A stretch of 64,000 nucleotides of DNA from Octopus sinensis. Its lineage: Eukaryota. The notes beneath the pieces were generated by a model. The model was not told the origin of the DNA, did no database searches, and worked only from the letters and a program-made list of their open reading frames with translations. Shown in pieces: positions 10,034 through 63,511 of this stretch (the stretch's first letter is position 1; each line of letters starts with the position of its first letter). The DNA is taken from assembly GCF_006345805.1 (NCBI RefSeq), contig NC_042997.1, positions 161,696,001-161,760,000 on the forward strand. Direction: 5' to 3'. The position numbers and the translations under genes are program-made.

Positions 10034-10063
10034 CAAAAGCAGCTTCCACCTCAGAACGAGTTT
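10034..10063 (-). CDS. Micro-exon class A (ETRSEVEAAF); last array exon before the Ig exon
   Basis: ctag|30 nt|gtgagt, phase 1-1. Confidence 0.85.
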
Positions 10064-10350
10064 CTAGCGAAAAATAAACGTAAATATATGCCCTCATTAT
10101 TTAGGTCACGTGAAAACAGTAAATATATTGAGGAAGAAGGGACGTACTTTTTTTTTTTTTCTTAATTATTACACCGTTATAAACAGTAGATGGACTTTAC
10201 AAGAATCGAAAATACTCTGAGAGAGAATATGTATACGGTTCAAACTTAGAGAAATGTAATTAGTACAATAAAAAAATATCGCAATACGATTAGAAACTTT
10301 AATATCTTATATTGATATATAATGCGAGAAACAATTTTGCAGTCGCTTAC

Positions 10351-10380
10351 CTGTACGAGTTATTTTTTCCGTTACGACCT
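10351..10380 (-). CDS. Micro-exon class B (EVVTEKITRT)
   Basis: gcag|30 nt|gtaagc. Confidence 0.85.
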
Positions 10381-12579
10381 CTGCAGGATTAAGGAAATAT
10401 ATAGTTTAATATTTCAAAAAGATAGTTTATAAACACTGTACCATTAAATGGTAACTATATTAGAACATTTGTTGAAAAACTCATGGCATTTAATCATTCA
10501 TTCGTTGTAAAATGATTCGTTGCTAAAATTTCACACACATATATACATATATATGAAGTGTATGTAAAAACAAACATATATATGTAGTATATCCTGTATG
10601 CATCTATGAATATATGCATGGATATATTCATTTAAGCATATGCGTGCGTGTGTATGTTTGCATGTAATGCAAGTAATTCGTTATATATGTAAATCTTTCT
10701 CAACGCAATACTTTCTCAACGAATGGAAATTTTCCATTTAGTTGGTGGAGTGAAAAGTAACTATTGATGATAGTTTTTAGTGACTCAACAAAAATAAACG
10801 ATAATTCAATTTCCACAGTCCAAGAAATAATGAACAGTTAATCATAAAATAAGAATTTTCATGCTTAGATTGAAACCTGATCTTTTTTAGTAACACATTA
10901 TCATCTACAAACTTGTTTTATTACACCGCGTTGGTATAGTCTAAATCCAAGCATAAATTTAAAGTATTCATGTATGTTGTCATGTACAGAATGGCGTACG
11001 CCAAAATGGTTGAGAGGCTTGTATTTTGCCATTTAGATACAGAAAGAAAACAAAAATCCATAAAGTTTTCGAAACGAGGAAAAAATATCACAGTATAAAC
11101 AATACCTTTTCTACCATTAATTTAAAGATGTCTATATCACTTTCTAATTTAGTTGTATCTTTCTATTCTATAACCTAAAGATATTTCAAAGACACAGACG
11201 AAGACAAAATAGAATAGATAATAAGAAACGAAGACAAATTTCACACCTTCAAGTTAGAAAAGTAAAAATTCTTCAAACAAAATAGAAAGCATGAAGGGAA
11301 AGCGCAAAACAAATAAAAATAGCGTGAGCGTATCTTTGTAAAGTCAGTGTTATTGCTGCTCGATAATTCTTTATAGATATGCTATATTTATATTTAGTTG
11401 AAAATGTTAAATAAAATTTAAATCATCGCTACATTTGTATTGAAACCATTATTTTCTTTAGTTTGTATTTTTAGCAATGTGTATCATAGTCATTTTCTGC
11501 TGTAACACGAGATTCATTGTTAGTGCATGTGTATATGTTTGTGTGTGTTTAAGTGAGTATACGCGCATGTGAAATTTTGTATCTGATCGAAAGTAAGAAA
11601 GTGATATATACACATATAATACATATAATGCATGTGTGTGTGTATGTCTGAGCCGGTTGTGCTTTGTTTTGCTTCATCACAAGTGTTTTTCACATATTTT
11701 TATGTAATTTAAATATGAAATGAAATTTTTCGCATCAGACTTAGTTTCTTGTGACGCCAAATTCAGTTTCTTTTACTTTTCAAATGTTCTGGCTAAAAAA
11801 CTAAATATATATTATACTAATATAATTTTAATTAAATAGTTTCCTTCTAATATATTTATTTTGCATGTAGATTTATTTCTTTGGGAAGTTCTGGTAATTC
11901 TGGTTGAGTAAATGTACTCAGGGAAGCATACTGTGCAGATGAAACATACTTAGATCTATTCAGTTATATAGGAAAGCTTCATGTCAGTTTGCTCATAAAT
12001 GCCAAATAAGTAACGGTTAATATGCGCGTTGATTTTTGTTAGTTTGACTTTAGTGATGCCTTTATATAGATGTTTTCTTATGCTGTGGAATTGACTAAAT
12101 TATTTCAATCCTTTCTGCAATGTACGTAGTGATCCAAATTGTGCTTTAAACAATTATTTCAAGATTAATACTGTTTTAGACAAATTGCATTTAGATCAAT
12201 CATATTTTAGATAAAATGTTTTCGACAAACTCGCCGGATACAATAGGAAATCATTACTAGCGAATTTGGGATCCAAGTACATAGCAGTGTCAGGCTGTTA
12301 AGAGAAACATGCCTGGCATGTAGGGAAAACTACAGCTAAGCCTTTTTGATCTTGACAAGTGTGAGTATGTATCTTTAAAATTAAATTGCAGTCTTTACAA
12401 ATGCTTACTTTGATAGGGAAATGTTACAAACTAATTTGAATTTATACTAAAAATACTACAAAAATCAGATAGTTTCGTTCTTTGAAAAAAGTGTTATCTA
12501 CGCAATTATATATTTTTAGCGATTTCTTTGCCGAAGCGAAACACTGGAAGCCATTGAAATGATTTTAAATGAAACTCAC

Positions 12580-12609
12580 CAACTGTAGATTCAACTTCAG
12601 ACGGTTTTT
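12580..12609 (-). CDS. Micro-exon class C (EKPSEVESTV)
   Basis: tcag|30 nt|gtgagt. Confidence 0.87.
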
Positions 12610-12974
12610 CTGAACGAAAGTTAATACGAAGTACAATAAGCAGGTTGTTCGATTATCTCATGCACAAAACACTTTTGTTCAAATACTTAGTTATGTAGTT
12701 ATACGCTTATAAATAGTATATCATTATAAATTTCTTACAATGGTAATGCATCTTCTAATTACTTTTAATTAGCACATGTTTTACTTTTAATATAGATTGT
12801 CTTAAAAATCATTAACTAATTTGAGAATCATTCGAAATAATTATCATTCTCTAAATATGCTATAAATTTACAAGAAAACTATCAAAATTATTCTTTAGCA
12901 TCTACGTTGAAATATTCTTTCCATAAAATTTATTTACATTAGTGAGTTCCATATTTTATAGCTAATGTGCTTAC

Positions 12975-13004
12975 CTATGCGAGATTCGGTTTCTCTAACA
13001 AATT
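12975..13004 (-). CDS. Micro-exon class D (EFVRETESRI)
   Basis: gcag|30 nt|gtaagc. Confidence 0.85.
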   Translation of the reverse strand, partial: NLLEKPNLA

Positions 13005-13361
13005 CTGCAAAATCAAAATCGTTATTCATTAATGATTACTTTCATCATTTCGTGAAAGAAAAAAAGCTTAAATAGTTTGAATTCAATTAAATTCATCAGA
13101 GAATCTAGATTGGCGTATTTGTCAGTATACTTTCATATCAATTTCTTAAGTATAACTTAATTTGAAAAATGTCCTAAAGTTCAATATTTAGTATAAGAAG
13201 GAATACTATAAATCGTATATATCAATTCATACTAAGGCAAATTACACTTCTAGTACGCATATCGATAAAAATAATAATCATTAAGAAATGTTTTACTGAC
13301 TATAATAATTCTAATAATATAGGTGCTCAATTTTCATTGAATCAATTAAGAAAACACTTAC

Positions 13362-13391
13362 GAACTGTGGCATCGACCTCAGAAGGTTGTT
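13362..13391 (-). CDS. Micro-exon class E (EQPSEVDATV; last base C)
   Basis: tcag|30 nt|gtaagt. Confidence 0.8.
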
Positions 13392-13837
13392 CTGAATATG
13401 GAATAAAAGGTGACATCAGATTTTGCACCGTGCACAAATAAAATATAGACGGACAGATGCATGAATGCATAAAAAAACTTCTCTACGCTTTTAAAATTTA
13501 ACGGTATGTTGTTCGAAACTATACAATACACTTACGTAAAAGGTATATTCGCAATTTTGAATATGTATTGAAGTTTTATGACATATGTTAGATGCGTTTG
13601 AAAAGTAGACCAATAATTGGAGAGCACTTACAAAAATTTATTTCATGCTTGAAACAATCGTGAATATTTTTTAAGGATTTTTAATAATAATGACAAATCG
13701 ATAATTTACAGGTATATGGAGATTTACATATTTAAAAATTACTTAAAATTTAGAAGTTTGAAAACAATTCTAGACGAAATCTATAGTATTGTGACTCGAG
13801 CGTATTATAGTAATAACGAAAATAGAAGATCGCTCAC

Positions 13838-13867
13838 CTTTAGGACGTTCGTCCTGTGTCACAATAT
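13838..13867 (-). CDS. Micro-exon class F (DIVTQDERPK)
   Basis: acag|30 nt|gtgagc. Confidence 0.87.
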
Positions 13868-14685
13868 CTGTGAAATTAATTGAATGAAATTGCAATTGAT
13901 TCTCAAGCATTTGTGGACAAAAAACTAAAAATGATAGTTCTTTTAATATCATACGATGTATTATGGAAAATGATTATATTGAGAAACAGTAAAGTATGTT
14001 TCAAATATTAGCAGTGGCAAATTTTGTAAACAAACTTTATGATGAATAAAAGACTGCATATGATACATTTTATCATTTTATGTATTATTTGACTAGGACA
14101 TTCAATGTATAATACTGAAACGCGATAAAGCAATAGCATTTTCACAAAAAGCATTTGCATATCATCGAGATTGTATTACTGATTATATCATTACGTACCA
14201 AGTACAATATGTCGTTTCAGCAGAATCTTTCTCTCTTTCTTTCTCCCCCTCTCTCTCTTTCTATACCTCTCTTTCTTTCATCGTTTGTCTATGATTTGGA
14301 AGTGGCTTTTGCAATGTATAGCCAATATTTAGGTACAATACCAGTAATTTCTGGTGAGAGTTAATGGATACCATCAGCCCCAGAAAAGTATCAGTTCATT
14401 ACATGAAGGGAAACAATACAAAGATGTATACACACACACACACACACATGTATATACATATATATGAAATAATTTTAGTACCTAATTCAACTGAATCTTA
14501 ATTGCCTTATATAATATATATATATCATATATCATATATACGAGAGCAGAATACAACAGGAAACTTACATCATAAATTACATAATCTTTACAAGTTTCAC
14601 TTGCGAATACTAGAATGTTGTGCGAAAATTGTTACCTAAACGATTGCATCCACCCATCTACACCCCTTGTATATATATAGATACA

Positions 14686-14767
<82 letters not shown>

Positions 14768-15131
14768 TGTATGTACGTATAATATACAGAGATAGATAGA
14801 GAGATAGAAAGACAGACAGACAGACAGACAGACAGGCAGGCAGATACTATGAAGTTCTATAATGTTTCTGTCTCCCAAATTTCATTCAAAGTATTCACCT
14901 ATTTTTATTACTAAGTTATTAAATGACTATGACTATTCCCAGTCAGAACTACTTCGTCCATCGAAAAGAGGCCATATCGTTCAAATATCTATCCAAACAA
15001 ATTTGAGGCACTTTCATTCTTTTCAAATACGATAGAATACCAGAGACTATATAAAGACAGATGAAGACATCAAAATGAAACTTAGCGACAAGCGGAAGCA
15101 AGAAATCATAAAAGAATAAACTATCACTCAC

Positions 15132-15161
15132 CAACAGTAGATTCCACCTCAGAACGTGTTT
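15132..15161 (-). CDS. Micro-exon class A (ETRSEVESTV)
   Basis: ttag|30 nt|gtgagt. Confidence 0.87.
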
Positions 15162-15467
15162 CTAATAAAAGGTAAAAGTAAAGATATACCCCCATCAATT
15201 ATATGATGCAAACAATGAAACATTGTGCGTTTTCAAATCATGAATTTCCGATATAAATTTCGACTATCCCCAAGCTGTTACACTTTATTGAGCATAATAT
15301 ATATTGAACTTTACTAAAATCGTAAATATGTTAAAAAAGGAAGTGTAAACAAAGTAGATTTTTAAAATGTAGTTACATTTCAGTAAACGATTTTAACTTA
15401 AAAATTAGAGACTTTAATATCTTCATGTTGATATACCGCTTGAAGAATAATTATTTTAGTAGCTTAC

Positions 15468-15497
15468 CTGTACGAGTAACTTTTTCCGTTACGATCT
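15468..15497 (-). CDS. Micro-exon class B (EIVTEKVTRT)
   Basis: gcag|30 nt|gtaagc. Confidence 0.87.
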
Positions 15498-15949
15498 CTG
15501 CGAAATTAACGAAATGTATAGTAAAGATTTCAAAAGTTACTTTCTTACAGAATATATAATTATGTCATAATTATATTAAAAAACATGTTTGCATTTCTAT
15601 GTCATTTGGTCCTTCATTATTTCTAAAGCGATATTATGTTTAAATGCATGCAAATACATATTCAAACAGATGTGTGTATCTATAGGTGTCTTCACCTGTA
15701 CGAATTAAAGCCTATGCATTACTGACACTCTTGTTACGGAATTTTGCATTTAGAAAATTGTAGAGAATGTCTTCCAATTTTAAATACGTCTTATATTTTC
15801 ATCCTAACGGAAACTTTTTTATTTATTTATTTTTTTTTTAATTAAAAAGACTGAAATCTCGTTACGTGCATACAAACATCAGAATATAATTTCCAGAAAC
15901 GCAATGCTTCCGTTACGTATAGGAAGATAACAAATATACATCGCACGTG

Positions 15950-15997
<48 letters not shown>

Positions 15998-16067
15998 ATA
16001 TACATATGTGTATACATATGTATACATGCATATATATATATATAATATATATATATATATATAATAT

Positions 16068-16099
<32 letters not shown>

Positions 16100-17096
16100 C
16101 ATATATATACAAACATTCATTAGAAAGTGTTTATAATTTTTTGTATAAATGTATTTCTGTAGAAAGTATTTATTATATCCCTATTTACTAAGTGACGCAC
16201 GCAAACATCCCTTAATGAATTATATGTTGCCACTTCCGCAGGCAAAGCGCATCTAACTCATTGAGACGATAGTAAGCAGCTCTCAAAGGGAACAGTATAG
16301 GATTTCAAGAAGTTAGAGATCCAGATAACTAGAGTCTACTTTTATGAATTGACAAATTTTGCGTGTAGGGAAAAAACCATATCAATATTAATAGTTCTTA
16401 TAATTTAATATTTTCAGAACTTGCATTACGACAAATAACCTAAATACGTAAATAGTACCAATTTAAAAATCCAAGTCTTTCGTTATATATTAAATTAGGT
16501 ACACAAAAAGTCTTGAAGGCATAAAGTTAGGCTAAAAAGAGAAAATTGAAATGGGAAAATTGAAAAGGAAAGTAAAATCCTATTATTATTCGTCAGAATA
16601 GGTAGGTTCCTATATGGTGAAAGAAGGAATTGATAAATTATATTTAAATCGAGATAAGTGTAATGAAAAGTGTAATGAAAACGAAATAGAAGGCTAATAA
16701 AATTATCGGTTGTGGACAAAGACACCAGCAACCTCTATTTAGAAAATACACAATCTCCAAACAAAATGCAATGTATTAAAAGAAAGCTCAAAGCAAATTA
16801 AGAACAGAACATATTGTCCTTGTGAAAGTCAGGCGTGTTGAATTTGATATAACTATATCGTATTTAAAATGTTACACACAAAAAGATTTCGGAGCGTATT
16901 ACATTTAGTTCATCACCACTTTAAATATATCGTTTCTGCAACATGTCACTAGTAGTATGAGGCAAATATACCCTACTCATGTGAAGCAGACCTCGTTATT
17001 AGCATACGTGCATGCTTGTGTGTTTGCTTTGAGTATGATATTTTACTTATCCTCACGTCAGAAACTGATGCAGTGCGTTAAATATTCTACGTATGA

Positions 17097-17160
<64 letters not shown>

Positions 17161-17283
17161 CTTATGTGTTCTGTTTAGCTATAAAATGTGATATTTCAGC
17201 AGTGATAGCTTTCTGTATTAGCCAACAATCGACAGTGAAGACAAACATTGAAAGCGATTGGAAGTATTGCAAATGAGACTCAC

Positions 17284-17313
17284 CAACAGTTGATTCGACA
17301 TCAGATGGTTTTT
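17284..17313 (-). CDS. Micro-exon class C (EKPSDVESTV)
   Basis: tcag|30 nt|gtgagt. Confidence 0.87.
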
Positions 17314-17686
17314 CTGAACGAAATTGAAATACATAACAGTAAACACGATGTTCAATTATTACACACACAATTGTGCATATATTTTGTCATATGTTTAGTT
17401 ATATTATTTATACACTTACGTATTTATGTTATAAAACATTTGTCAGACCGCAGATTTCATTTTTTAACAATGTATTCTAGCTATATTTAGCTGAAAAATG
17501 CTTGTCTATCACTTATACTTAATAAATATTGTCCATAAATTAGAAAAACATAGATTTAATTATAAATACTTCCTGAAACATACTATCTTAAACTTACAAG
17601 AATACACTCTTACTCATGAGAATATACAGAAAGTATCATGAATATTCCGAAACAACACCATATGTTGTTATAGAAAAGATGCTTAC

Positions 17687-17716
17687 CTATACGGGTTTCG
17701 GTTTCTCTAACAATTT
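17687..17716 (-). CDS. Micro-exon class D (EIVRETETRI)
   Basis: acag|30 nt|gtaagc. Confidence 0.87.
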   Translation of the reverse strand, partial: KLLEKPKPV

Positions 17717-18047
17717 CTGTGAAATTAGAAACGTAATCCATTAATATTTTCTTTCACCAATTTTAAATAAAATAAATCTTTAATAGTCTTCATCAAAATA
17801 CTCAACGATATACCTGTCTATGAAATTCTATATCAATTTCGTAAGTATAATATTAAAATATTATGTAAAGTACTTCAATACTTTATATATGACATAGATA
17901 CAGGTTTATATGAAAGCAAATTGAAGTTCTAATACTCATTCTAATTAAGATGATAAATATAAAGTATTACTGAGTGACAAATTGCTACTAATAATATTGA
18001 TAATTTAACTGCCACATATTCATGAATTCAATTTAGAAATCACTTAC

Positions 18048-18077
18048 CAACTGTGGCTTCTACATCAGAAGGTTGTT
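18048..18077 (-). CDS. Micro-exon class E (EQPSDVEATV)
   Basis: tcag|30 nt|gtaagt. Confidence 0.87.
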
Positions 18078-18430
18078 CTGAATAAGGAACAAAAGATGAT
18101 GTCATCAAATTTTCAATAATAACTAGAGTATTTATGGATAAGATAGAAAAACCAAAAATATTTAAAGTTGTTCTAAACACTCATGGTTTGGAGGGATATT
18201 TCTTAACAGTATGCTTTGACACTTTGCAGTATATATCTAACAAGTTCAAAAATGTTTCGAAAGCAGAAAATATATTCTAATTGATAATTTATTGACTGTT
18301 CACGACATTATACTTTACAGGTATTCATAAGAATATAAAAATATAAATATCAATTTCTTATAAAGACATAGTTTGTAATATAATAATTCGGAGCTATTTT
18401 AGGTATTATCATAAACAGAAGCTCGCTCAC

Positions 18431-18460
18431 CTTTAGGACGCTCGTCCTGTGTCACAATAT
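18431..18460 (-). CDS. Micro-exon class F (DIVTQDERPK)
   Basis: atag|30 nt|gtgagc. Confidence 0.87.
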
Positions 18461-19185
18461 CTATAAAATGATTGAATGAAATTGCAATTAAAACTCATGC
18501 ATTTATGAATGTATTACTAAAGATGTTTTTGTGCAAATAAACCTTAACTTTATAATGTGTTACTACTTCAACAGTAAACATCACAATTGTGAAAACTGTT
18601 TTTATTTCAACACTATTAAGCTCAAAATTAATTCCATTTAACTGTTATGGAATGCAATACACATATATTGTAAAAAGGGGTAACTGTAATTCAAATACTA
18701 GCACACGCTAAACTGTCATACAAACTTGATATTGAATTAGAATATTGAAGAATAAACATTTTAAGTGAGACTTCGGTGTATAATACTGATAAGCGATGAA
18801 GCAACACGGCATTCAAAAATGCGTTTACATACTATAGTTATTATAGTAATAATCATGTTATTGACTCTATGATTCTGTAACTGAAATATTCATGCTACAT
18901 TGCAATAACGCATTTATTTCCTAAATTATCAACAAATTAGTTGAATGTAAACGGTTCATATTTGCTTTATTATCACGTTTTTTAATGAAAAGTAGGATTT
19001 GACATCGCATTTATTTAACAAATTAAATAGAGTTAATAATGTTTTTTCAGGTTATATCAACAGAATTGGAATAACGTTAGTTATTCTTACATCATAGAGT
19101 ACAAATACAAAAACAGATGAAGATTCTTAAAAAGAAAATCGTGACGAGCAGAAGCAAGAAATCATGAAAATAATCTCTCACTCAC

Positions 19186-19215
19186 CAACTGTAGATTCCA
19201 CTTCAGATCGTGTTT
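19186..19215 (-). CDS. Micro-exon class A (ETRSEVESTV)
   Basis: ccag|30 nt|gtgagt. Confidence 0.87.
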
Positions 19216-19558
19216 CTGGAGAAACGTAAACGTAAACGTAAATATATAATCCTATCAGTTATATCATTCAGAATAATATTGCAAAATTTAAACGTGAAAT
19301 TAATGTCGCATACTTTTCGAGAACTGAGATTAATCTTGAGTACTTTTCGAAATCGAAATCTTTACGAAATATTCTTTAGGTTATATTCCCATAACTAATT
19401 TTGTAAATTGTAGTCGAAATTTACTAGAAATAGAACTCTTAAAGAATTTGCAAATTGATTAGATGTAGAAAAATTGATAATATTTAAGGATGTAAATATA
19501 GTAGAAATATAATTATATTGAATTTAGGTGATACATAGTATCTTTGCCTGTAGCTTAC

Positions 19559-19588
19559 CTGTACGAGTTACTGTCTCGGTTACCATTT
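19559..19588 (-). CDS. Micro-exon class B (EMVTETVTRT)
   Basis: acag|30 nt|gtaagc. Confidence 0.87.
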
Positions 19589-19808
19589 CTGTGAAATTAG
19601 CGAAATATATAGATAAATATTTCGTAAATTAATTTATAACATAATGCATAATTCTGTGGTATTCAGAAATGGTTTACATATATACCGGATGTAGTCTCCA
19701 AAATTTTTTAAACAGTGTATATATAGATACATAAATATAGATATTTATGTGTGCATATATTTTCTTTTAATTTTCTACCATTTATTGCTGAGTATATACA
19801 AATTTGTG

Positions 19809-19858
<50 letters not shown>

Positions 19859-19861
<3 letters not shown>

Positions 19862-20110
19862 CATCTCCTCGACTTATGACCTATGCAACTTACAACCTAT
19901 GCGACTTAAGACCACAAAAAATAAATAAAAAGGGATTTTCGAACTTAGGGCAGCTGCGCGGATGATAAACATGGTAGCGTCTGACAACTCTGTCTCTCAC
20001 AGTTGCGTTTGAATGAAAACAGTATTGAAAAATATAAATCCGACACGACCAGATTGACACACGACCTGTCAGTGGGAACGGAATTCGGTCGTAAGTCGAG
20101 GAGGTGTATG
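19859..20110. mobile_element. MITE (pogo/Tigger-like) with terminal inverted repeats
   Basis: CTCCTCGACTTATGACC ... GGTCGTAAGTCGAGGAG inverted pair, inserted next to (TA)n. Confidence 0.6.
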
Positions 20111-20136
20111 GATAAATAAATATATATATGTGTATA

Positions 20137-20178
<42 letters not shown>

Positions 20179-21275
20179 TGTAAATATACATATATACATA
20201 CATATATATGTATATATATATATATAGATTGTCTTTCGGGTGTTTTTTCTTATTCCTTTTTGTTGAAGAGTGTAGGCTCGAAACGTACTAGACGTTTTCA
20301 TTTTTCTTGAGCATCAAACTAATACACTTGCTTGTTATTCATACACCTGTCTTCGTCTTTTGTTTATATATATATATATAATATATATATATATGTGTGT
20401 GTGTGTGTATGTGTGTGTGTGTGTGCGTGCGTGTGCGTGCGTGTGTGTGCGTGTGAGTGTGTGTGTATATAAATTACTGTAAATATATATATATATATAT
20501 ATAATTAGTTATAATCAGTCCGAATATGCTTGATGCATATTCGAACTGGAGGACAAGCTGCTCACTGCGTTTTGTCACGGAGAATATATCTCGCTTGTTG
20601 ATAAATGGTGTGTGTACACTTAGATCAGCTTACAGCGCCATCTGCCTAGACTGTGAGATGTTAACATTTCAAGGTAGTTGTCTCATCATCGGTCACAGGC
20701 ACCAAGCAGACGGCAGTGCAAGCTGAATTAAGAGATTACCTCTCTTATGCTTTTCCAGTTAGCATCCGATGATTGGTAGCGCTATACGGCGGCTCACCGT
20801 AAGTAAATTACAGAGGGGGAGTGCTAAGCTGTGGTAAGTGAAGCTGCAATGTTATTGTCAGTCCAAATATGCTTTATGCGCATTCGAACTGGGGAACAAG
20901 CTACTCACTACGTCTTATATTTCCTATATTTCCGGGAAATATAGGACCATTGTGAATAACTACATATTTTACAAATCATTATCTCGCAGCAGTAGACCAG
21001 AGAAAATTAAGCCATCTATAATCATGTGACAGAATTTCTTCTGAAATGTGATATAATATTTTTGCTCCGTGTAATGTATATGATTGCCAACAAGTGTTAA
21101 AACAAAGCAGGTGGGCTAATAACTTGAATTTAGTGAATTCATGTAGGTTGTCATGAACAATATAACTCAGGTAATAATTTACACGAAAAATTATTGGGTT
21201 GTTGAACGAAAACAAGACAAAGAATTTGTTGTAAATAACCATGTGCGCGAATGTTTGTGTGTGCGGGCATGTTTG

Positions 21276-21306
<31 letters not shown>

Positions 21307-23047: not shown

Positions 23048-23123
<76 letters not shown>

Positions 23124-50313: not shown

Positions 50314-50384
<71 letters not shown>

Positions 50385-52453: not shown

Positions 52454-52475
52454 AGCTTATTTGTACGAGCTGCAC
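52454..52475 (-). pseudogene. Dead class-B micro-exon remnant
   Basis: agcttat-ttgtacgag versus intact agcttac-ctgtacgag (donor GT>AT); the acceptor half is replaced by LINE sequence. Confidence 0.65.
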
Positions 52476-52479
52476 TGAC

Positions 52480-52565
52480 CATAGAAGAGGGCTTCTAGGT
52501 AAGTTAATGTTTTTCATGCGTACCACATGGCCAACCCACCTCAGTTGCACTTTGATAAATAAACT
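52480..52565 (-). mobile_element. Short RTE-clade LINE 3' fragment
   Basis: Minus strand translates FIKVQLRWVGHVVRMK, the conserved RTE ORF2 C-terminal motif. Confidence 0.65.
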
Positions 52566-53668
52566 ATGCCTGCATTATCACATCTTGCAAAAATCATCTG
52601 TTGAGAACTCGTCCTGTCATTTGGTGTTACACTTTATGTTTCTTATATTACAGTCACGGCAGGAATTCAATGTCAGCCCTTCGCCTTCTGCAACATTTCA
52701 GCAGTTCATTTACCCGTTGCTCTCTCTCATTGCAGCCCATTTCCGGAATATACCCATTTACGTACAATATCTCATTTACACTTCAGTTCATTTGACTGTC
52801 AACTATACGATTGGTCGTGTTAGACGCAGCGCTGTTCGCCTCAAAGGTGGCTTCAAAAATTACATATCCCCAGTCCCAATTTCCATGATACGTTAGGGAC
52901 TAGAATCCGCCAAACAGACGGATTACATGTCGCTTAGTCGAATTAGACCATCATTTACTCCACAAATGTTTTGTCATCAATGCTGCATTTTCCAGTATCA
53001 CTTGTTTCAACATAGCTGTAATGTATATATATATATATATGTATAAACTATAGCATTTTAATCCTGAGTAAAGCCTGGTATCTCTGCTAGTCATTAGTAA
53101 TCTTATATAACTGATGTTGCAAAGCTGCAAATGCAATAAAACTATTATTTTCTATAACAAACGGACGATAATACTTCTGATACTAACAACCGCTTATTAA
53201 CAGATTAAGAATTCGTCAAAGATACTACGAGTGAATTGAAAGTGTAATACCCTGTGATAATAAGGCGGAAGTAAGTCAAAAGTTAGTATTGTCATTTTCT
53301 TCGAAACTAACTTTCGTTAAAGTCGATGCTGTTTTAAATGTGTATGTTTGAAACTTGTAATGCATATTGCATTGGAACAATTTATCAGCGTGCACTTTAT
53401 GACCTGATAGCTCATCACTTCTAGTCTGTGTAGTGTGCATCCATTTTATGTAAATCAGAATTTTATATCAGTCTTGTTGAACGCTTTTGTGGCTGTGTGT
53501 GTGTATGATTATATGCAGTATTGTGTGCATGGAAGCATGTGGAAATATAATGGATGTAGGTTTTATGCATAAGCATTTTTGCATGACTTGGCATAGCTTG
53601 CTATACCCGATAACTGACAATGAAGCCAAACATCGAAGCGAGTAGAAATTATTGCAAATTAGACTCAC

Positions 53669-53698
53669 CCACGGTAGATTCAACTTCAGACGGTTTTT
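53669..53698 (-). CDS. Micro-exon class C (EKPSEVESTV)
   Basis: tcag|30 nt|gtgagt. Confidence 0.87.
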
Positions 53699-54062
53699 CT
53701 GAACAAATGTTAAAATATATTAGCTATAAGCAAGTTGTTCAACTATTCATGAATACACGTGATTCTATTCGATATATTTACATAAAAATATACAGTTTTA
53801 TGTATTTAAATTGTAATATTACCCAAGTAGAATGTTAAATGATCAAACTGACATTAACATATTAACAATATATCTTCTTAGAAATATTAAATGGAGCGTT
53901 TCAGATGTTAAAAACGATTACGTTTAATCAGAAAATTTTCGGAGTAATTCAGAAATATTTCCTAATTATATTTTCACATGAAAACCTTCGATATAATAAA
54001 TATTGTAGAATATCTAGCGTTAAAATTAGTGGAGATTATATTGATATAGCAAATGCGCTTAC

Positions 54063-54092
54063 CTATGCGAGATTCGGTTTCTTGAATAATTT
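54063..54092 (-). CDS. Micro-exon class D (EIIQETESRI)
   Basis: acag|30 nt|gtaagc. Confidence 0.87.
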   Translation of the reverse strand, partial: KLFKKPNLA

Positions 54093-54435
54093 CTGTGAAA
54101 TTAACAAAGGAATCAATTAACTATTGTTTTCATTATTTCGAGAAAAAACCCCAGCGAATCTTAAACTGTGTTGTACCAGATAATTTATGAATGAATCTAC
54201 ACGGAAATATACATCAATATGTACGTTCACATGAATTTCTTAACACGGTTTTTATTATGGCAAGCATGTTGTAATATTTTATATTACATATTAGTTCATA
54301 TTAAGGCAAACTAACATTTTACTAATCATCCCAATATAAACAACAATTACTAAAATAAAAAGTAATTTTATTAGAATAATAATAATAATGATAACAGTTG
54401 CTCTATTTTAAGGAGTCGGTTTAGGAGACACTTAC

Positions 54436-54465
54436 CAACTGTGGCTTCAACTTCAGAAGGTTCTT
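54436..54465 (-). CDS. Micro-exon class E (EEPSEVEATV)
   Basis: tcag|30 nt|gtaagt. Confidence 0.87.
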
Positions 54466-54906
54466 CTGAATGTGAATAAATAAAAATTATGCTATTAGAT
54501 TTTTACACCTCATAGAAATGAAAACAAAAATAAAAATATAGGAAGAGCACACTTCCAATATTTGCCTAAACTTCCATAGTTTTCGGGATATTATAGGATA
54601 CAATGATCTGTCCTTATGCATTGTTATATTCACTGTTTTCAACTAAGTATGGAACATTAAGTATATATTCCAGTAACGTGTTTATGTATCCTATTCCAGG
54701 AATAGCAACAAATTGATATAAATTGATTTTATGCTAGAAACAATTTTGAATTATTATTTATATTTTGAAATAATAGTTGTGTATTCACATTTTATAAAAT
54801 TCATATGAATGAAAATTAAAAGAGTAATTTGGAAACAATTACAGAAACAGTTTCTAATAAAAGTTCATATTTATTCTAGTATTATCGAAAATATAACCTT
54901 GCTCAC

Positions 54907-54936
54907 CTTTGGGACGCTCTTCCTGTGTTACAATAT
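54907..54936 (-). CDS. Micro-exon class F (DIVTQEERPK)
   Basis: acag|30 nt|gtgagc. Confidence 0.87.
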
Positions 54937-55685
54937 CTGTGAAATTTAATAAAGTGAAATTGCGATTAATAAATACAATTGCAATTGTACATCTATAAAT
55001 TTGACTGCTAAAATCGCTATTCCTGCTAGTATTTGAATATAAATGTATAATATATTACTGTTTATAACTGTACGTATTGCTTTTGTAAGCAAGAATATTT
55101 CAAGCAACTTGATTCAATATTATGTATGTTTTAAACATAGGCACATTGTATTTATATATAAAAAAAACATTGATATCTAATTAAATTGCATTATGGTAAG
55201 TACTTTTATAGTTAAACGATCGACACATTTTAGTATATGTTCTTGCTAATTCAAAATACAAATGTTGTAAAGTACTAAAAAAAACAAATACACAATATAC
55301 GAATTACGTGACTAGAACCACCCTAATATAACACACAAAAACGACTAACACTGTACGACATCCACAGCAACTTTTTCAGAATATTCGCGTTATATGATAT
55401 TAGTCCAAAATATACGGTATCTGACAAAAGGTAATATATATTGTAAATTGTCTACGAAATAGTTCACTAGAAATGCTTATACGTGTTTTTATTCATAAGT
55501 TATCGCCTAAACTTTACAAGATACTGTAAAACATCATTCACCAATCAAAGATTATATAAAATTCTTTGGAAAAGTATCCACACGAATGCTCAATACATTT
55601 ATTCTCTCTCAACAACGTAGGAACGACACAAAACTATACGCAGACAAGCAGAAACAAAGAATTATTGCAACAATCTCTCACTCAC

Positions 55686-55715
55686 CAACTGTAGATTCCA
55701 CTTCAGAACGTGTTT
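55686..55715 (-). CDS. Micro-exon class A (ETRSEVESTV)
   Basis: atag|30 nt|gtgagt. Confidence 0.87.
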
Positions 55716-56015
55716 CTATAAAAAGGTGAACGTAAAAATATAAACCCATCAGTTTCATCATACAAACATTAAATATATAGTGGATCGAATAGTAATTTTA
55801 GTTTACTCTTAGAAATCATTTATTTCCGAAATACAATATTTTAAACTAGATGATTAAAGTATTATAAAAATGAAAGTAAAATTGAAAATACTTTCATAAT
55901 GGGTGTACAAATTCAGATGTATGAAATTTAGTATATTTCAAAACGAATATCGCAGAATTTTCTATTTATAGTCATGTTGATACATTCGCTATGAAACAAT
56001 TCTGTAGTAACTTAC

Positions 56016-56045
56016 CTGTACGGGTTACTTTTTCTGTTACGACTT
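56016..56045 (-). CDS. Micro-exon class B (EVVTEKVTRT)
   Basis: acag|30 nt|gtaagt. Confidence 0.87.
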
Positions 56046-57639
56046 CTGTAGAATTAATGAAATAAATAAATGACTCAAGAGAAACGTATACGAATCTATA
56101 ATTACGTAGTTTCTATTATATACATATATTTGTGTATGTATATATATATATATATATATATACATATATATACATGTGTGTGTGTATAGATATGTATGTA
56201 TATTTATGTGCATGTATATACATGTATAAATATATATACTCACCCAACAATATATATATATGTATGTATAGATACACATATATATACTTATACGTATTAT
56301 ATATTTGAATTTATCTCTGTGTGTATGCATGTATGTATTTCTGTATGTATATGTGTATTTACGTTTGTATGTATGTGCGATTATAATTCACGTAAGTGCT
56401 CTTTATAAAGAAACGTTGACAAATATGCTTTAATGAACTAAAAAATGCTAATTAGATAGAGAAGCAAAACTAAGTCAGCAGCGTAATTTTCAGCGACACT
56501 CCAAATAACCGGGAAATATTTGCAGGAATTAACCGCTGGTTTCTATTAAGATTGTATTTTCATGCTCAGAGAAAATTTGATCTCTTTCAGTAAGTGGTAT
56601 GCACAGCTATGTTTCAGTATTTTTAGGACATTTAAGTTAGAATGACCAATTCACATCTTTGGTTACTTGACAAATGTTCTTCCATGTAGAAATATGTTAC
56701 GAAAATGTTTATCCCTTATAATTTGCATAATCATAAAACGAGAGTAAAAACTTCTAACTCAACTGTACCAGGACAATATATTTAGACTTTTGCTAGCTAT
56801 TGAATGACACATGCAAAACTTTTTATATGAATTTTTTTTTAATTGAAAAGGGAAAGAAAAAACTGAACGGTAATGTTTAGAGACTGAAAGTAGGTTTCTG
56901 CATTTATGATTGCATGAAATTTTAGTGTGTTTAATTCTGTTTGTGAGTGTGTCTTAGTGATTGTTGACAATTCTAAAGCAAATCGTGATTGGTGTCCCCT
57001 GTTCAATGAAACGATTGAATCCTAATATTTAAATCGAAGTATATATTCATTCATTGCACTACAAATAATATCTTTCCTATCATTGATTAAAGAATATTGA
57101 TTTTACTTCATAATTCAGGAGAAACCCTCTGCTCTATAATTTTGAACATACTTCAAAAATACACAGAAAATGAAATGAGGCAATAATAAGCTGTAGCAAA
57201 CAAACAGAGACACCAACAAACAAAAGATATAAAATGGCAGGAGCAAAATTGAGTGCAAAACGAACTGAAAAACAATGTAAACACATCTTTGAGAAAGACG
57301 TTGTTTGTAGGTGTTTTACTGCTTAATTCACATTGACGTTTTTCTATAAATAGCGCATCTATTAAATGGCACATGCCTCTCTGCTTTGAATGAATATTTG
57401 TCGCTACTGTGCGTGTATGTTAGTATTTCTGAGAATTTCATGTTTCAGATTTTGTGCTTAATCGCATGTGAGAAAGACGCTTGTATATGTACATATATTT
57501 GTATGTATTATGCGTTAGCTTTCAAGCCTATTATGTATTTGTGTACTACAAATATCTCACTATTTATTTGCTGTAGCCCTCATATTGTCTGCAAAGCAAA
57601 GCACAGAAAGCCACTGGATTTATTGCAAATTAGACTCAC

Positions 57640-57669
57640 CAACTGTAGATTCGACTTCAGAGGGTTTTT
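57640..57669 (-). CDS. Micro-exon class C (EKPSEVESTV)
   Basis: tcag|30 nt|gtgagt. Confidence 0.87.
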
Positions 57670-58401
57670 CTGATGAAAATTAAAATCAATTATTAATTAC
57701 CAGATTTTTCGATAATTTACTTGTTCATATTTAAGAAAATGATTACGTTTATATCATGAGCTTATGTATTTGCACTTTAACACATTCGTTAGATTGATAT
57801 TTTCACTTTACATCTTCTTACTGAATTTAAGTGAAACATTTTGCTTCTGTTATTTACTCTTTTAAAAAATAATACTAATTAGATAGCCATTAAAATAATT
57901 CAGAAACGGACAAAGTCAACATCCATTCACAAGGTTGCAAAAGCAACGAAACTTTTGGAAGAAAAAATACAAATAACTCAGAAATATTTCATAAATATAT
58001 TTTCATAAATTTGCCAAACTCTATATTATTGATTAGAATATATGGACAGTAAAATATATACTCGAGAAGACTTAATATTCGTGGCCACTATGTTGTTAAA
58101 AATATATTTAGTGTTTCTTACTCTTATTTTTTGTATGATGTAATTGGTGAGGGTATATATTTACATTTGCCTTTCACTGGAAACAGCAACCGTACACTTT
58201 TTCAAAATCATATGTTTACAAAGCAAATTTTCGGTTAAAGCAAAAGATGTTTTAAAAAGTGTAGATGGAATGGAAATTATTGTTTTATGAAAGATATTCT
58301 AAGTAGGAAATATTACATTTGGCAAATGAATATTGCTAAAGAATTAAGGATTTGACTTCATTTTAATGTGTAGTGTGAGGAATAATTCTATACTAGCTTA
58401 C

Positions 58402-58431
58402 CTGTATGAGTCACTTCCTCCGTTACGACCT
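58402..58431 (-). CDS. Micro-exon class B (EVVTEEVTHT)
   Basis: acag|30 nt|gtaagc. Confidence 0.83.
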
Positions 58432-58869
58432 CTGTGAAATTAATGAAACATATTTGTAAATATTTGAAAAGATACTTTGCATAACTACGTAGCGTTTATT
58501 AAAAAAATATTTGTACATATAGTATTTTACATTATCATTTTCCAGGCATAATATATATAAATATATATATATCCATAAATATATAAATACAAATCTGTAG
58601 CAGAGTCTATAATTGTGTTTGTACTCGTCTTTGATCCCATGCATGTATATATGCTTGGATGCTTCATTATAATTCACTCAGTGAGAATATTTACGTATGT
58701 AAATATTGTGAGATGCCAATTGGTAACGCAGAACTGGCTCGTTTCAGCAGTTTTTAGCTAAACTCAACGGAAGTAGGAAATAATTTCAAGAAAAGAAGTT
58801 TCTCACAAAAGCTAAACGATAACTGCGCTCATCTTTCTGTCTTATTACACGCAGCAACTTGCGTGCTCC

Positions 58870-59545
58870 ATCGTAACTGCCTCGCTGGTTATAGGTGAGA
58901 CGACAAAAAATTCCACTGGTTGGTTCAATTGTCTGTGTTCCAACAGGATGGTAAAGATATTTTTGAACTGGTCATTCAGGACCTCACTGATTATCCGCTA
59001 TCTGTGAGTGAACCATCCTTCTGGAAGAAGGATCCTATTTTGCAGCGTACTGAGGCTGTTTCTTTGACATAATGAAAGAAAGCCTTTGGGTTTGATTTGA
59101 TGTATTTTATAACCCATGATTCATTGTCTGCTTTCTCCTTCATATCGGATTATTACTCCATCAGTGTTGTCCTTAGGCGAAACCTTTCACTACTTTTGAG
59201 AGGTAGGTTGATGCAATTTGCAACCTTCGTCCATCTCATAACAGTCTTCCTCTCCCTTTGATTCTTGCTCCTTTTTTGTGTTGGCCTTGTGCTCTAGGAC
59301 ATATTTCTGGCATATGGTTTGCATAATAGACATAAAATATTCTAGTTTCATGCCAATGTCTGGTGTGGAGAAACACTTTGACCAGTCCTGTCTGAGGATC
59401 TCCTTTTGGATCGATTTCCAGTCTTTTATGTGGAAGTTCAGGTTGGACAGATTTTGGGTGCTTCCTTTAGGCTGTATGTCTTTGGCTACTTTTGGTCAAT
59501 ACACAGACAACTCTATTATGTTGGGATCCGAAACGAATGTCCGCG
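58870..59545 (-). mobile_element. Decayed CR1/L2-group LINE ORF2 fragment (end of endonuclease to pre-RT region)
   Basis: Minus strand: SDPNIIEL..LNFHIKDWKSIQKEILRQDWSKCFS..IKSNPKAFFHYVK. Confidence 0.75.
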
Positions 59546-60426
59546 TCACTTTCACAGTATGAACAATGTCTATATATATAACAACAACAACAACAACAAT
59601 AATAATAATAATAATAATAATGATAATATATGTATATATGGGTACGGGACGTCACCAACTGTGTAAACAAGATGAAATACGAAGACAAACGTGTTAAATA
59701 CGTAAACAACGAGAGAAAATGGAAAACATGACAAATAAACACAGAGAAACGACCCTTCGTCAGTTGTCGGCTGTCTATCTACTCCTTATTTCGAGCATTC
59801 AACGACAATATGAGTCTTCAAAGACATTTGCTCCCATAAATTCTAAAATAAAATTCAGGATTTATGGCGGGACAAAGTTGGGAACAAAAACAGGACAGTG
59901 GAGACATACAAGGAAACCGAACGAAAACAATCATGGAAGATCGTTAGACCAAAATGAGAGGAAAATAGTAAACGTTGGGAGAAATAATTTCTTTTGAAAG
60001 AGAAAAGATAGAAGAGGTACTGAAAGTTAAGAAAATACAAATTCTCCAATCAGAGTATAATACATGAACAGAAAGCGCAATGCCAAGTGAAAAACAATAC
60101 CAACATATTTTCGCGACAGCCAGCATTATATAATGAAATCTGGTTTAATATGTTTCGTAAAATTCAGACAATCGTTATGAAGGATTAATGCATTTTCCTG
60201 TAGAACAAGGCTTGTTTCTCTGTAGAACATTGTTTGTTGTTATTGTGTGTGAATGCTTTCGTGTCCGGAATTTCGCATTTTGAATATGTCTGTGACTTTG
60301 TTCAGCTATGAAATACATTAATTATTTGCGTCATTGTACATCTCTTCCTGTATATCTGCTATAACCCACAGTTGATGGTGAAGCCAAACATTAAAAGCAA
60401 CAGAAATTATTGCAAATAAAACTCAC

Positions 60427-60456
60427 CAACAGCAGATTCAACTTCAGATGGTGTTT
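60427..60456 (-). CDS. Micro-exon class C variant (ETPSEVESAV)
   Basis: tcag|30 nt|gtgagt. Confidence 0.8.
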
Positions 60457-60518
60457 CTGAACAAAAATTGAAATAAACTGCGATAAGCATGTTACTTCAC
60501 AAAAGCCTCATAAATTTA

Positions 60519-60595
<77 letters not shown>

Positions 60596-60785
60596 ATGAG
60601 TATTATAATACATATTGCATTTGATATATAGAGTAAATGGAGCTATCTAAAATATGGTTTATATATAAGCACACCAAAGAAGGTTACAATCGACGTTTTT
60701 CTTCAGATAATACGCAAAATATAAATTTTCGAGAAAATGATTGTAAATTCTGAACGGATCTATGTCATTATTTGACGTTGCTTAA

Positions 60786-60815
60786 GTATCTAAGATTTGA
60801 CTTTGGTAGTGATTG
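60786..60815 (-). pseudogene. Dead class-D micro-exon (donor lost, in-frame TAG)
   Basis: gcttaa-gtatctaagattt..gattg-ctatgaaatt..acgtaat aligns to the class-D context at the usual ~330 nt from a class-C exon. Confidence 0.55.
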
Positions 60816-62558
60816 CTATGAAATTTACGACGTAATCAATACCATATTGTTTACTGCAATGCATAAGCAGTATGATTATACAGTATGATCCAGATGGTCC
60901 TTTAGTATTTAAATACTATATAAAATTATGTTTAATTATGTTATAGTTATGTTGTTATATATTTTTAATACTGCTTTTGTGTCTGAGTGTAACATGGTTC
61001 CCATGTGAAGGAGTTCTGAGCTGTTGTTTAATATGAGTATTTGTTGTTATTTCATTTACCAAGTCTAAATCTATATAACGAAAGATCCTTAAGGAAGAGA
61101 ACGTGTGTGTCTAAGAAAAAAACCGCAATTATTAGTATCTTATGGATAGATACTAGTCAAACTTTTTCATTCTTAACTGCAACATTGTCAAACACATTAA
61201 CAGTTCTATTATTAACCCTGTACTGTATTCTTTGAATTGGGGATTGATCCCACCAAACGAGAGCTTGGACACGAGTAAGTTTACATAATTTCAGGCTGAT
61301 CAAAAACTTTTCGAATTTAGTAATCGGAAACTGTGAAATATGTCGCAATGTTCATTCTTGCTCTTGGGTGCTAGATTTAATCTGCCAACCGCTTTAACAA
61401 CACAAACAATTGCTTACAACAGATTTAAATCACAACACAATCGAATCCGTTGCAAAGATTTGGACCTAGTTTCAGATAACTTCCTATTTTCATCCCTAGT
61501 TCCCTAGTTCCGTAAAACTGGGGAAAATAATAGGCACTTCTCGTTCATCCTTCAGTAAATTAGAAATATATATGTACATGAATGGACGTATGAATGTACA
61601 TGTGTGTGTGTGTGTATGGTAAACACTTTTCTTATATTCCCTCCTATTTAAATAATAGGATTTTTATTACTAGCACTACATTAAAAGAGGAAAGGGTGAT
61701 CATTTCAAATTACACATTAAATGAGGACTTTTTCATTACAATTAAGAGGATAACAATAACCTTAGTAAAAACACAAAAATTGTCAAATATAAATCAATAT
61801 AGCAACAACGGAAGCAAGAAACAAGAGAACAATGTCGACAACAGTTCTTCAGAATAAGTATTACATACAAATAATATGATATAGCTATATATATATGTAG
61901 AAACGTGTTGATCTTATATAGAATCTAATTTTTTATATGCACTGTTCATAAAGCTAATATACATTAGCTGTTGACAGTATAGTTAGTGCAATAGCTATGT
62001 AACATATCTGGCTTGTTTTAAAATTATATGAAGGGTATGCTACAAATGTTTAGAGGATATGGAGTAATGGCAACGTTAATCCTGTAACTTCCGTGTTCAA
62101 AAAAGTTTTAAAACTTTACAAATAATACGGAGCATTGCAGTAACAAATATATTAAGCTGCAAAACGGAGAGACGTTATACATTGGCCATAATTACATTGA
62201 GGAAGAAGAATAAAACAAAAGGATGTAATCATGTTCGTAAATAAGCATAATAATTATAAAACCATGTTGATTAATACACAGGAAGCGAAAATGTTGCCTA
62301 CAAACCAGACCACTGGAATTAAGCGCACTAGAAGAGTAGAATTATCTCGCATTTGTAATTTGCAATGCATTGCATCATATTTATTAAGGATTATGCACAT
62401 TGATGAGCGTTTATGCGTGCATATTATAACAGGCAGATCTATATAATATAAATGCCTGAAATCATAAGTAATCCGTGTATTTAAATGCCTAAATTTTACA
62501 TATAGGATAGTGAAGTCAAACATAGAAAGCAACTGAGATTATTTCATATGCCACTCAC

Positions 62559-62588
62559 CAAATGTGGATTCAACTTCAGATGGTTTTT
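62559..62588 (-). CDS. Micro-exon class C variant (EKPSEVESTF)
   Basis: acag|30 nt|gtgagt. Confidence 0.83.
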
Positions 62589-63481
62589 CTGTGCGAAATT
62601 AAAATAATATTCATTAACTGTTATTGAAATATCATATAGGCACACGCACATACACGTTCACACGCGTCGAAGACACACATTCAATCTTTCTGAAATGCTA
62701 TCTATATGAACATATGTAAATGCACATATATGTTGGTATATATGTATACCTATAAATACATGTTAAAGAAATCAAATTAATGCAGCTGTGACAAAATTAC
62801 AGATTTAATGCGAACAATGCATTATTTATACCATTATGTTAGAAACTGAGATACACACGAGCAAAAGAAAAGTTTTGCCGTTGAAGTTGACGTGACTGTG
62901 AAAAGTATAGATGCATATAGCGCACTTTTTATGGAAGATTTGAATGATATTTCGAGAAAGTTGAGCAACCACATAGTGAATAGCGCATTACTTAACGTTC
63001 GCGCGCTTGTGTGTGTGTGTGTCTGTGTCTGTGTCTGTCTGTCTGTGTTTTTGTGTGCGCGCGCTTGTATGCTTTGCTCAATTAGGCGTAAGGTTAGAGT
63101 TACTGGGCTAGGAGCAAGCATTATGTAACCCTAAATCCTAGTCGTATATAAATTTAAAACCGTATTCTCGTAATTGAAAAGTCAAATCTTCAAGCTTCAG
63201 TGAATAGGTCTTATTCTGTACAGCTTAAACAAATTACACACTCTGTCAACAATGAAAATATATCGAACCCACTTTATTAATCGCAATATTTCCTACACTT
63301 ATGACTACTTGTACATCATTGAATTATGAACAGTATATCTTGTAATTGATATTATAGAATATGCTCGAAATTTAAGTTCACAATTTGTAATTACTACAAT
63401 ATATAATCAAGTAAAAATTAAATAGAAGTTATTTAAGAAATCCTGTCAGAATTTGGAGTATCTAGTGAAAATATTGCTTAC

Positions 63482-63511
63482 CTCCACGAATAATGGTTTC
63501 CTTTATAATTT
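63482..63511 (-). CDS. Divergent class-D-like micro-exon (EIIKETIIRG)
   Basis: acag|30 nt|gtaagc. Confidence 0.8.

Follow-up and report, generated by a model that had tools for sequence, protein, structure and literature searches.

We analyzed a 64,000-nucleotide stretch of the 2.72-Gb genome of Octopus sinensis (NC_042997.1, positions 161,696,001-161,760,000; hereafter, the window), along with 400 kb of flanking sequence on each side. (Coordinates below are window coordinates, continued beyond both window ends.) The window has a G+C content of about 30% and abundant microsatellites. Its minus strand carries the 3' third of a long array of 30-nucleotide (nt) exons, which lies inside what we infer to be the octopus obscurin gene. 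The array reaches window coordinate 214,808, or about 150 kb past the window, and spans about 161,706,034-161,910,808 on the contig. We assigned the class letters for the exons anew. They agree with the two motifs in a first-pass annotation of this DNA, but the letters may differ from those used there. The features in the window are:

10034..63511, minus strand: the part of the microexon array within the window (its 3' third), with 66 phase 1-1 exons, each of 30 nt, called by the profile search.
10034..55715, minus strand: class A, ETRSEVESTV, 11 copies (profile and tree), with lower coordinates 10034, 15132, 19186, 24071, 31644, 35306, 39313, 45255, 49773, 52110, 55686.
10351..58431, minus strand: class B, EVVTEKVTRT, 11 copies (profile and tree), with lower coordinates 10351, 15468, 19559, 24417, 32008, 35670, 39679, 45617, 50095, 56016, 58402.
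12580..62588, minus strand: class C, EKPSEVESTV, 13 copies (profile and tree), with lower coordinates 12580, 17284, 22024, 25430, 28603, 33433, 37168, 42240, 47722, 53669, 57640, 60427, 62559.
12975..54092, minus strand: class D, EIITETESRI (in the window mostly EIIRETETRI), 10 copies (profile and tree), with lower coordinates 12975, 17687, 22417, 25796, 28987, 33831, 37566, 43851, 48097, 54063.
13362..54465, minus strand: class E, EQPSEVDATV or EQPSEAEATV, 10 copies (profile and tree), with lower coordinates 13362, 18048, 22773, 26565, 29350, 34212, 37947, 44233, 48484, 54436.
13838..54936, minus strand: class F, DIVTQDERPK, 10 copies (profile and tree), with lower coordinates 13838, 18431, 23303, 27174, 31067, 34706, 38710, 44668, 48909, 54907.
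63482..63831, minus strand: irregular punctuation module of two exons, one of 24 nt at 63808-63831 (DRPYAETI) and one of 30 nt at 63482-63511 (EIIKETIIRG).
3598..3864, minus strand: immunoglobulin (Ig) I-set exon of 267 nt in phase 1-1 (Pfam PF07679, E = 2.5e-17).
32573..38329, no strand assigned: the most recent duplication of a hexamer in the window, with 99.0% identity, introns included, between 32573-34594 and 36307-38329 (offset 3,734).

The exons were called with a profile that was built from seven seed exons and iterated over all 239 minus-strand candidates in the window (AG, 30 nt, GT). The 66 retained exons are all in phase 1-1 and have no stops. The weakest of them scored 24.5, as compared to -7.8 for the next candidate and -9.3 for the best of 157 plus-strand controls. 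Six classes hold 65 of the 66 exons (A 11, B 11, C 13, D 10, E 10, F 10), and the remaining exon is irregular. In the direction of transcription, the order of the exons is B-A-F-E-D-C. There are 9 complete units with this order (hexamers) in the window and 20 across the array, which also has 28 E-D-C cores.

A profile search over 464 kb retained 214 exons. The array accounts for 199 of these (172 in the six classes and 27 irregular), and the other 15 are of another type and lie past the next Ig exon. Adding short or weak exons (five of 27 nt, four of 24 nt, one of 21 nt, and a weak one of 30 nt) raises the array's total to 210 exons. When spliced, these give a frame of 2,084 codons with no stops, and 200 of the 210 exons have 10 codons. 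(A composition scan for additional exons yielded mostly transposon frames.) Two class exons, at about 118,630 and about 101,520, are short of one base; both are within blocks that are 95-98% identical, and these may be assembly errors. At 86,904 there is an A-like exon without a GT donor.

The six classes form two families. The first-pass annotation proposed that classes A, C, and E share the motif E-x-[PR]-S-E-[VA]-E-[SA]-T-V, that classes B, D, and F share an [ED]-[IV]-[IV]-x-[EQ] start and a C-terminal Arg, and that these two super-classes alternate. This was borne out. The A/C/E motif is exact in 18 of 34 exons and has at most one mismatch in 32 of them. The B/D/F start is present in 28 of 31 exons, and 30 of the 31 have Arg at positions 8-10, versus 0 of 34 for A/C/E. 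In a phylogeny of the 65 classed window exons with their 50-nt flanks, the super-classes are parted by a branch with support of 99/99. (In a tree of 172 array exons, the Shimodaira-Hasegawa-like approximate likelihood ratio test gives this branch a support of 99.) Similarly, ACE|BDF is the best of the 10 possible 3|3 splits for the whole exon (0.25 versus -0.006), for third codon positions, and for the intronic acceptor flank (0.226 versus 0.016 for the 12 intronic bases before the acceptor). The donor flank favors a different split, ACF|BDE, which was not rejected by the approximately unbiased (AU) test (p = 0.07); the ABF split was rejected (p = 0.009).

Within the window, 62 of 64 steps go from one super-class to the other (10,000 shuffles gave a mean of 32.4 and a maximum of 47), as do 160 of 171 steps over the entire array (the maximum in 10,000 shuffles was 110). 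Between adjacent classed exons, there are 14 departures from the canonical order, of which 6 preserve the alternation and 8 break it. (For two of the eight breaks, the cause is a one-base deletion in a young copy, which may be an error of assembly.) Because of these breaks, we dropped the idea of selection for unbroken alternation, and the hierarchical "design" that the first-pass annotation saw in the array is not shown.

In the stretch tested, the array exons are spliced together. We compared assembled contigs from four of 24 listed public sequencing runs (from three studies) to positions 11700-14200, which is 2.5 kb with four exons. (None of the runs is recorded as RNA; the run type was guessed as RNA for three of them and is unknown for the fourth.) Only 5 of 30 bins were covered, and these are the bins that hold the four exons. 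The joints at 13004/13362 (D/E) and 13391/13838 (E/F) have CT..AC ends, which is GT-AG on the minus strand, and were seen in all four runs. The joint at 12609/12975 (C/D) was seen in one of the four runs, and exon 12580-12609 was covered in all four. One contig has exact copies of F, E, and D back to back, and in several contigs the same class returns after 180 nt. By eye, the loose ends of contigs match exons at 10351, 63808/63482, 72041, 88877, 145084, and 148333. The match to exon 10351-10380 is identical letter for letter, and the junction between 63808-63831 and 63482-63511 appears in a loose end in two of the four runs. The contigs are mixed, as paralogous copies contribute. Over these 2.5 kb we saw only consecutive joints and no exon skipping, although contigs of this kind are unable to exclude skipping.

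Could the array instead be a non-coding degenerate satellite, or an assembly artefact, that happens to mimic splice sites? The coverage restricted to exons and the GT-AG joints, across 4 runs from 3 studies, largely refute this. Furthermore, the introns of most copies are just 50-80% alike, and an independent annotation of another octopod, Argonauta hians, translates the same units. Although some blocks are 97-99% identical, two exons of young copies lack a base, and the runs are not recorded as RNA, we consider this explanation to be extremely improbable.

Within classes, the ratio of nonsynonymous to synonymous substitution rates (dN/dS) is 0.12-0.59, and it is below 1 in all six classes, with the lowest value for class B (0.12). 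(These are simple pairwise counts, and the pairs are not independent.) By this measure, the array exons are under purifying selection.

We then considered which gene contains the array. The domain set and the match to the kinase mark this gene as an obscurin, and the strand, the order, and the Argonauta models suggest that the array belongs to it. The array is flanked by two Ig blocks, with 17 Ig exons upstream and 26 intact Ig exons downstream, all on the minus strand. (Pfam confirmed I-set for two of the Ig exons.) The Ig exon at 3598-3864 is the first domain 3' of the array and opens the downstream block. On the same strand and 3' of the Ig block are SH3 (PF07653, E = 1.9e-7), RhoGEF (PF00621, E = 1.1e-10), and PH (PF22697, E = 1.7e-9), then Fn3, a first kinase (PF00069, E = 3.9e-16), Ig and Fn3 again, and fragments of a second kinase. 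By themselves, the second-kinase fragments have no Pfam kinase match. By eye, the kinase exon fragments read identically to the A and B rows for octopus OBSCN (XP_036361934.1) in supplement 3 of PMC12198301. All of these elements together span about 650 kb, on one strand and in a consistent order, which suggests a single transcript that would run from the array through the SH3-RhoGEF-kinase exons. For the upstream Ig block, the best-scoring named matches among proteins of 4,331-5,000 residues, which were the only ones searched, are vertebrate obscurins.

This arrangement resembles those of the obscurin/UNC-89 proteins (vertebrate obscurin B, UNC-89 of C. elegans, and octopus OBSCN), which have tandem I-set Ig domains, SH3-RhoGEF-PH, Fn3, and two C-terminal kinase regions; the two octopus kinase regions are also separated by Ig-Fn3. 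Unlike the others, the octopus gene would carry, within its Ig tandem, an insert of 2,084 residues encoded by about 210 microexons. Ahead of its first kinase there are also at least 15 Fn3-like exons, a number well above that of known obscurins; UNC-89 as a whole has two Fn3 domains, according to PMC4865318. In the accessible text of a review of obscurins (PMC12812942), a chordate type, with Ig domains before RhoGEF, is distinguished from an ecdysozoan type, and molluscs are not mentioned. The octopus gene has the Ig-before-RhoGEF order, as in the chordate type.

Several other features of this region are worth recording. The Fn3-like exons ahead of the first kinase (L030-L039 and L066-L068, minus strand; five by Pfam and the rest by eye) include two frames, L066:2788-3150 and L066:3988-4350, that are 1.2 kb apart and have identical displayed translations. 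Either this duplication is very recent or the assembly created it. From -1,109 to -31,427 (L021-L024, minus strand), there is a second family of 30-nt phase-1 exons, of the ELPAVIEPDT type, with 15 copies and one decayed copy. They interleave with a young tandem of Ig exons that are about 70-77% identical to the window Ig, and several of these Ig copies bear stops or frameshifts. One linker of the ELPAVIEPDT type is present in the Argonauta model P0001. On another contig, a second cluster of Ig exons (C2:91,637,608-91,680,621) is 33-52% identical to the window Ig and is probably another titin-family gene.

The array is also found in Argonauta hians, where the models P0006 (Ig-array) and P0001 (array-Ig) carry the corresponding Ig blocks and, between these, repeats of the same classes. 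The window's Ig exon is 80% identical to P0001, in which it comes after the last repeat. When parsed, the Argonauta repeats have the order E-D-C-B-A, and in the two models the super-classes alternate at 62 of 74 steps and at 33 of 40. Class F is missing from the 5' model and has one call in the 3' model; this could reflect either loss or mis-annotation. From the 5' to the 3' end of the octopus array, the variants grade from Ile to Val at C6, from Asp to Glu at E7, and from Thr to Arg at D4. In the 5' Argonauta model, it is the 5' forms that predominate, so the regional differences are likely older than the split between Octopus and Argonauta. Gene models cope badly with the array: the Argonauta locus is broken into at least five models.

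None of 131 other proteins that we compared, including many vertebrate and arthropod obscurins, has the array unit twice. A search of representative proteins for relatives outside octopods gave seven weak matches, but this blank is weak, as the search missed the Argonauta proteins as well. (We inspected two of the seven, and they are unrelated, with compositional similarity.) Searching the ESM Atlas with the repeat gave no usable match, and protein searches recovered no obscurin of useful length from squid, cuttlefish, or bivalve. In sponges, the GranRep genes have tandem 30-bp coding repeats, but these lie within one exon of a small signal-peptide gene (PMC11703226), and we dropped them as unrelated. 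We found no description of the array in the literature that we searched, with most subscription journals outside its coverage.

How did the array form? The first-pass annotation proposed that an ancestral two-exon module triplicated and diverged, and was then amplified about 10 times as a hexamer of 3.7-6 kb, to give a hierarchy of 10, 20, and 60 residues. The hierarchy is evident: residue identity at lags of 10, 20, and 60 is 0.20, 0.47, and 0.75, and the contigs repeat every 180 nt. The hexamer length is close as well, as the D-to-D spacing in the window is 3.2-6.3 kb. Introns that adjoin the same classes align well over shuffles (an excess of 7-29 score units), and because they are homologous, we conclude that blocks of exons plus introns were amplified. 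The count of 10 was too low, given the 20 complete hexamers and 28 cores.

The triplication is likely but unproven. The two super-classes fit it. But introns of different classes no longer align: at either intron end, 15 of 15 class pairs show no similarity above shuffles (an excess of at most 1.5), and therefore the older triplication is unreadable from introns. Nor do AU tests settle the branching within each super-class. In our first tree, the two super-classes mirrored each other, as (F,(B,D)) with a support of 91/71 and (E,(A,C)) with a support of 90/75, and 2,960 of 5,000 column resamples agreed. None of the alternatives was rejected (p = 0.45-0.69) and two of them score higher, and the mirror branching is a hint only, rather than proof, of an ancestral unit with B/D/F then A/C/E.

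The ages of the copies vary. Young blocks are 99% identical at 33/37 kb, 93-98% identical across 96-123 kb, and 87-95% identical at 195-210 kb. Most D-C introns are only 50-70% alike, and the intron likeness of most copies is 50-80%. These sequences indicate that amplification is ongoing and local. Losses of single exons and of pairs both occur. At the 5' end of the array (194,900-214,808; L014-L016), there is a different four-exon unit, which includes a 27-nt exon and has about five copies at 87-95% identity. This unit contains two adjacent B-like exons, and therefore single-exon duplication also happens. An irregular module that opens with a Trp-containing exon occurs four times in the array (at 193,158; 131,035; 83,349; and 64,623) and once in Argonauta model P0001. 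The two exons at 63482-63831 are part of it. The D-C introns at corresponding spots beside this module are the most alike (74% for 88 versus 70 kb, and 63-65% for 122-97 versus 75 kb), which points to a fourth, block-level duplication. Another D-C intron has plus-strand fragments that resemble, by eye, a Tc1/mariner transposase (42555-43363), which stretch it from about 350 to 1,581 nt.

Overall, we propose that one symmetric exon of 10 codons gave rise to two types, that this pair was likely triplicated while Octopus and Argonauta still shared an ancestor, and that the hexamer and its sub-blocks then multiplied through unequal crossing-over. Such crossing-over would be tolerated because the exons are in phase 1-1 and have lengths that are multiples of three.

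Alternatively, unequal crossing-over might have run away in a gene to which any soluble, frame-symmetric linker is acceptable, and the array would be its nearly neutral product, with selection only for the frame, the splice sites, and a rough composition, and no function for the length or the order. The bursts of copy number, with blocks of 95-99% identity in three places (96-123 kb, 33/37 kb, and 202-210 kb), and the losses of single exons and pairs fit this idea, as do the near-absence of class F from the 5' Argonauta model and the similar expansion of the adjacent Ig block, which contains broken copies. We think it quite unlikely, however, given that dN/dS is below 1 in six of six classes (and just 0.12 for B) and that exons between 10 and 148 kb appear joined in contigs. 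Also, the classes, their order, the Trp module, and the 5'-to-3' gradient are common to Argonauta, even though the cross-class introns decayed.

We then examined the encoded peptide. Its 2,084 residues are 24% Glu, 16% Thr, 14% Val, 10% Ser, and 4.5% Pro, with a net charge of -0.16 per residue. It falls on the disordered side of the charge-hydropathy boundary (0.408 versus 0.471). The first-pass annotation described acidic exons alternating with exons that end in Arg or Lys, which overstates the contrast: all six classes are net negative, with mean net charges in the window of -1.9 for A and C, -3.1 for E, -0.4 for B, -1.1 for D, and -1.0 for F. It also predicted a charge periodicity of 20 residues. 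A weak one exists for net charge, whose power at period 20 (7.9) exceeds all 500 shuffles of exon order (maximum 3.9), so the prediction survives the refutation test set for it. Acidic residues do not have this period (0.3, p = 0.54), and its source is Arg and Lys alone (23). Charge power is 124, 73, and 50 at periods of 2, 5, and 3.3, versus the 7.9 at period 20, and hydropathy power is 92 at period 2 and 28 at period 20. We infer that the periods of 20 and 60 residues are mostly duplication history and not a functional charge code.

The strong period of 2 in both charge and hydropathy raises the possibility of a conditionally folding ladder of amphipathic beta strands. Each 10-residue exon would form a strand that is acidic on one face and bears Val, Ile, Thr, and Ser on the other; an exon pair would be a hairpin or a rung of a solenoid; and the ladder would pass between coil and folded states in response to Ca2+, pH, or a basic partner filament. 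Odd positions are 52% Asp or Glu, while even positions are 2% Asp or Glu, 37% V/I/L/F/A, and 43% Ser or Thr. The unit length of 10 is kept in 200 of 210 exons, and the 20-residue period is clearer in hydropathy and in basic residues than in net charge. AlphaFold drew a 479-residue Argonauta stretch largely as long strands, but the mean predicted local distance difference test score (pLDDT) was 36.5 from this single sequence, which is uninformative and hence not a fold. The harmonic peaks also arise by construction from exact tandem repeats of 10 residues. Several other features do not fit a ladder: the net charge opposes the stacking of strands, Pro is at position 3 in 62 of 92 A/C/E exons, units of 7, 8, or 9 residues are tolerated even though they shift the odd/even register, and 8 of the 14 irregular steps break the alternation. 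On balance, we consider a ladder unlikely.

We favor another interpretation: the array probably encodes a disordered acidic tether between the two obscurin Ig blocks, which would act as an entropic spring or a spacer. We predict this from the sequence and from analogy with the interkinase region of UNC-89 and the PEVK region of titin. If each residue adds 0.34 nm, the contour length of this random coil would be about 0.7 micrometre. The tether would give obscurin the reach and the stretch to bridge its anchor points in octopod muscle. Its length could, hypothetically, be tuned by exon skipping. Frame-symmetric 3n exons would be harmless to the frame when gained, lost, or possibly skipped.

Several observations weigh against a tether of this kind. 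First, P+E+V+K is 48% of the peptide and proline is 4.5%, versus about 70% P+E+V+K in titin PEVK and 12-13% Pro in interkinase springs. Second, beta-branched residues are plentiful and the period-2 pattern is strong, which is atypical for a coil. Third, the contigs contain no skipped isoform, albeit over only 2.5 kb and in runs whose type was guessed as RNA. Fourth, the array is linked to the kinases by strand, by order, and by the Argonauta models, which cover only the Ig-array-Ig part.

The exons of titin PEVK are small and frame-symmetric. As described in PMC12241362, the PEVK region has a triplicated block of nine exons, a length that varies across tissues, and a composition of about 70% Pro, Glu, Val, and Lys. 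The octopus array is likewise a low-complexity segment, rich in Glu and Val, that lies between Ig tandems, has many exons, and has duplications of multi-exon blocks. But its host gene is obscurin, by the domain set and the match to the kinase; it is low in Pro and abundant in Thr and Ser; and its unit is 10 residues, with a strict alternation of two families. Also, splice variation has been demonstrated for titin. So the array is not titin PEVK, though it may work like it, and it parallels titin PEVK in a different gene. The same octopus gene also has a segment that is truly PEVK-like: a single exon with a 340-codon frame (L029:3935-4954, minus strand), in which a 14-residue Pro-Glu-Val-Ala-Lys repeat is followed by an Ig start.

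The interkinase region of UNC-89 is a low-complexity, random-coil entropic spring, which was measured and is needed for sarcomere order, according to 10.1101/2020.04.03.023374. Like the interkinase springs of UNC-89, obscurin, and SPEG, the array is a low-complexity region without domains, in the same protein family. Those springs are 647-742 residues, rich in Pro, and located between the kinases (same source), whereas the octopus array is three times longer, poor in Pro, far N-terminal, and encoded by microexons. The octopus gene also has its own interkinase exon.

A bolder proposal combines several of these ideas. Octopod obscurin would be a titin-like tunable element, in which an acidic ladder of beta strands is switched by Ca2+ or filament binding and is spliced in steps of 10, 20, or 60 residues in each muscle. 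This is a long shot. If it were true, the length would be set separately for the muscles of the arm, mantle, and sucker, and the gene, at roughly 300 exons, would be on a par with human titin in this respect.

The array is a clean record of the evolution of an exon array at four nested levels: the exon, the pair, the hexamer, and the block bounded by Trp modules. To our knowledge, the molecular basis of passive elasticity and of filament spacing in cephalopod muscle is poorly known. A lineage-specific obscurin insert of about 2,000 residues, encoded by 30-nt exons that are frame-symmetric, offers a concrete candidate for a contributor to both.

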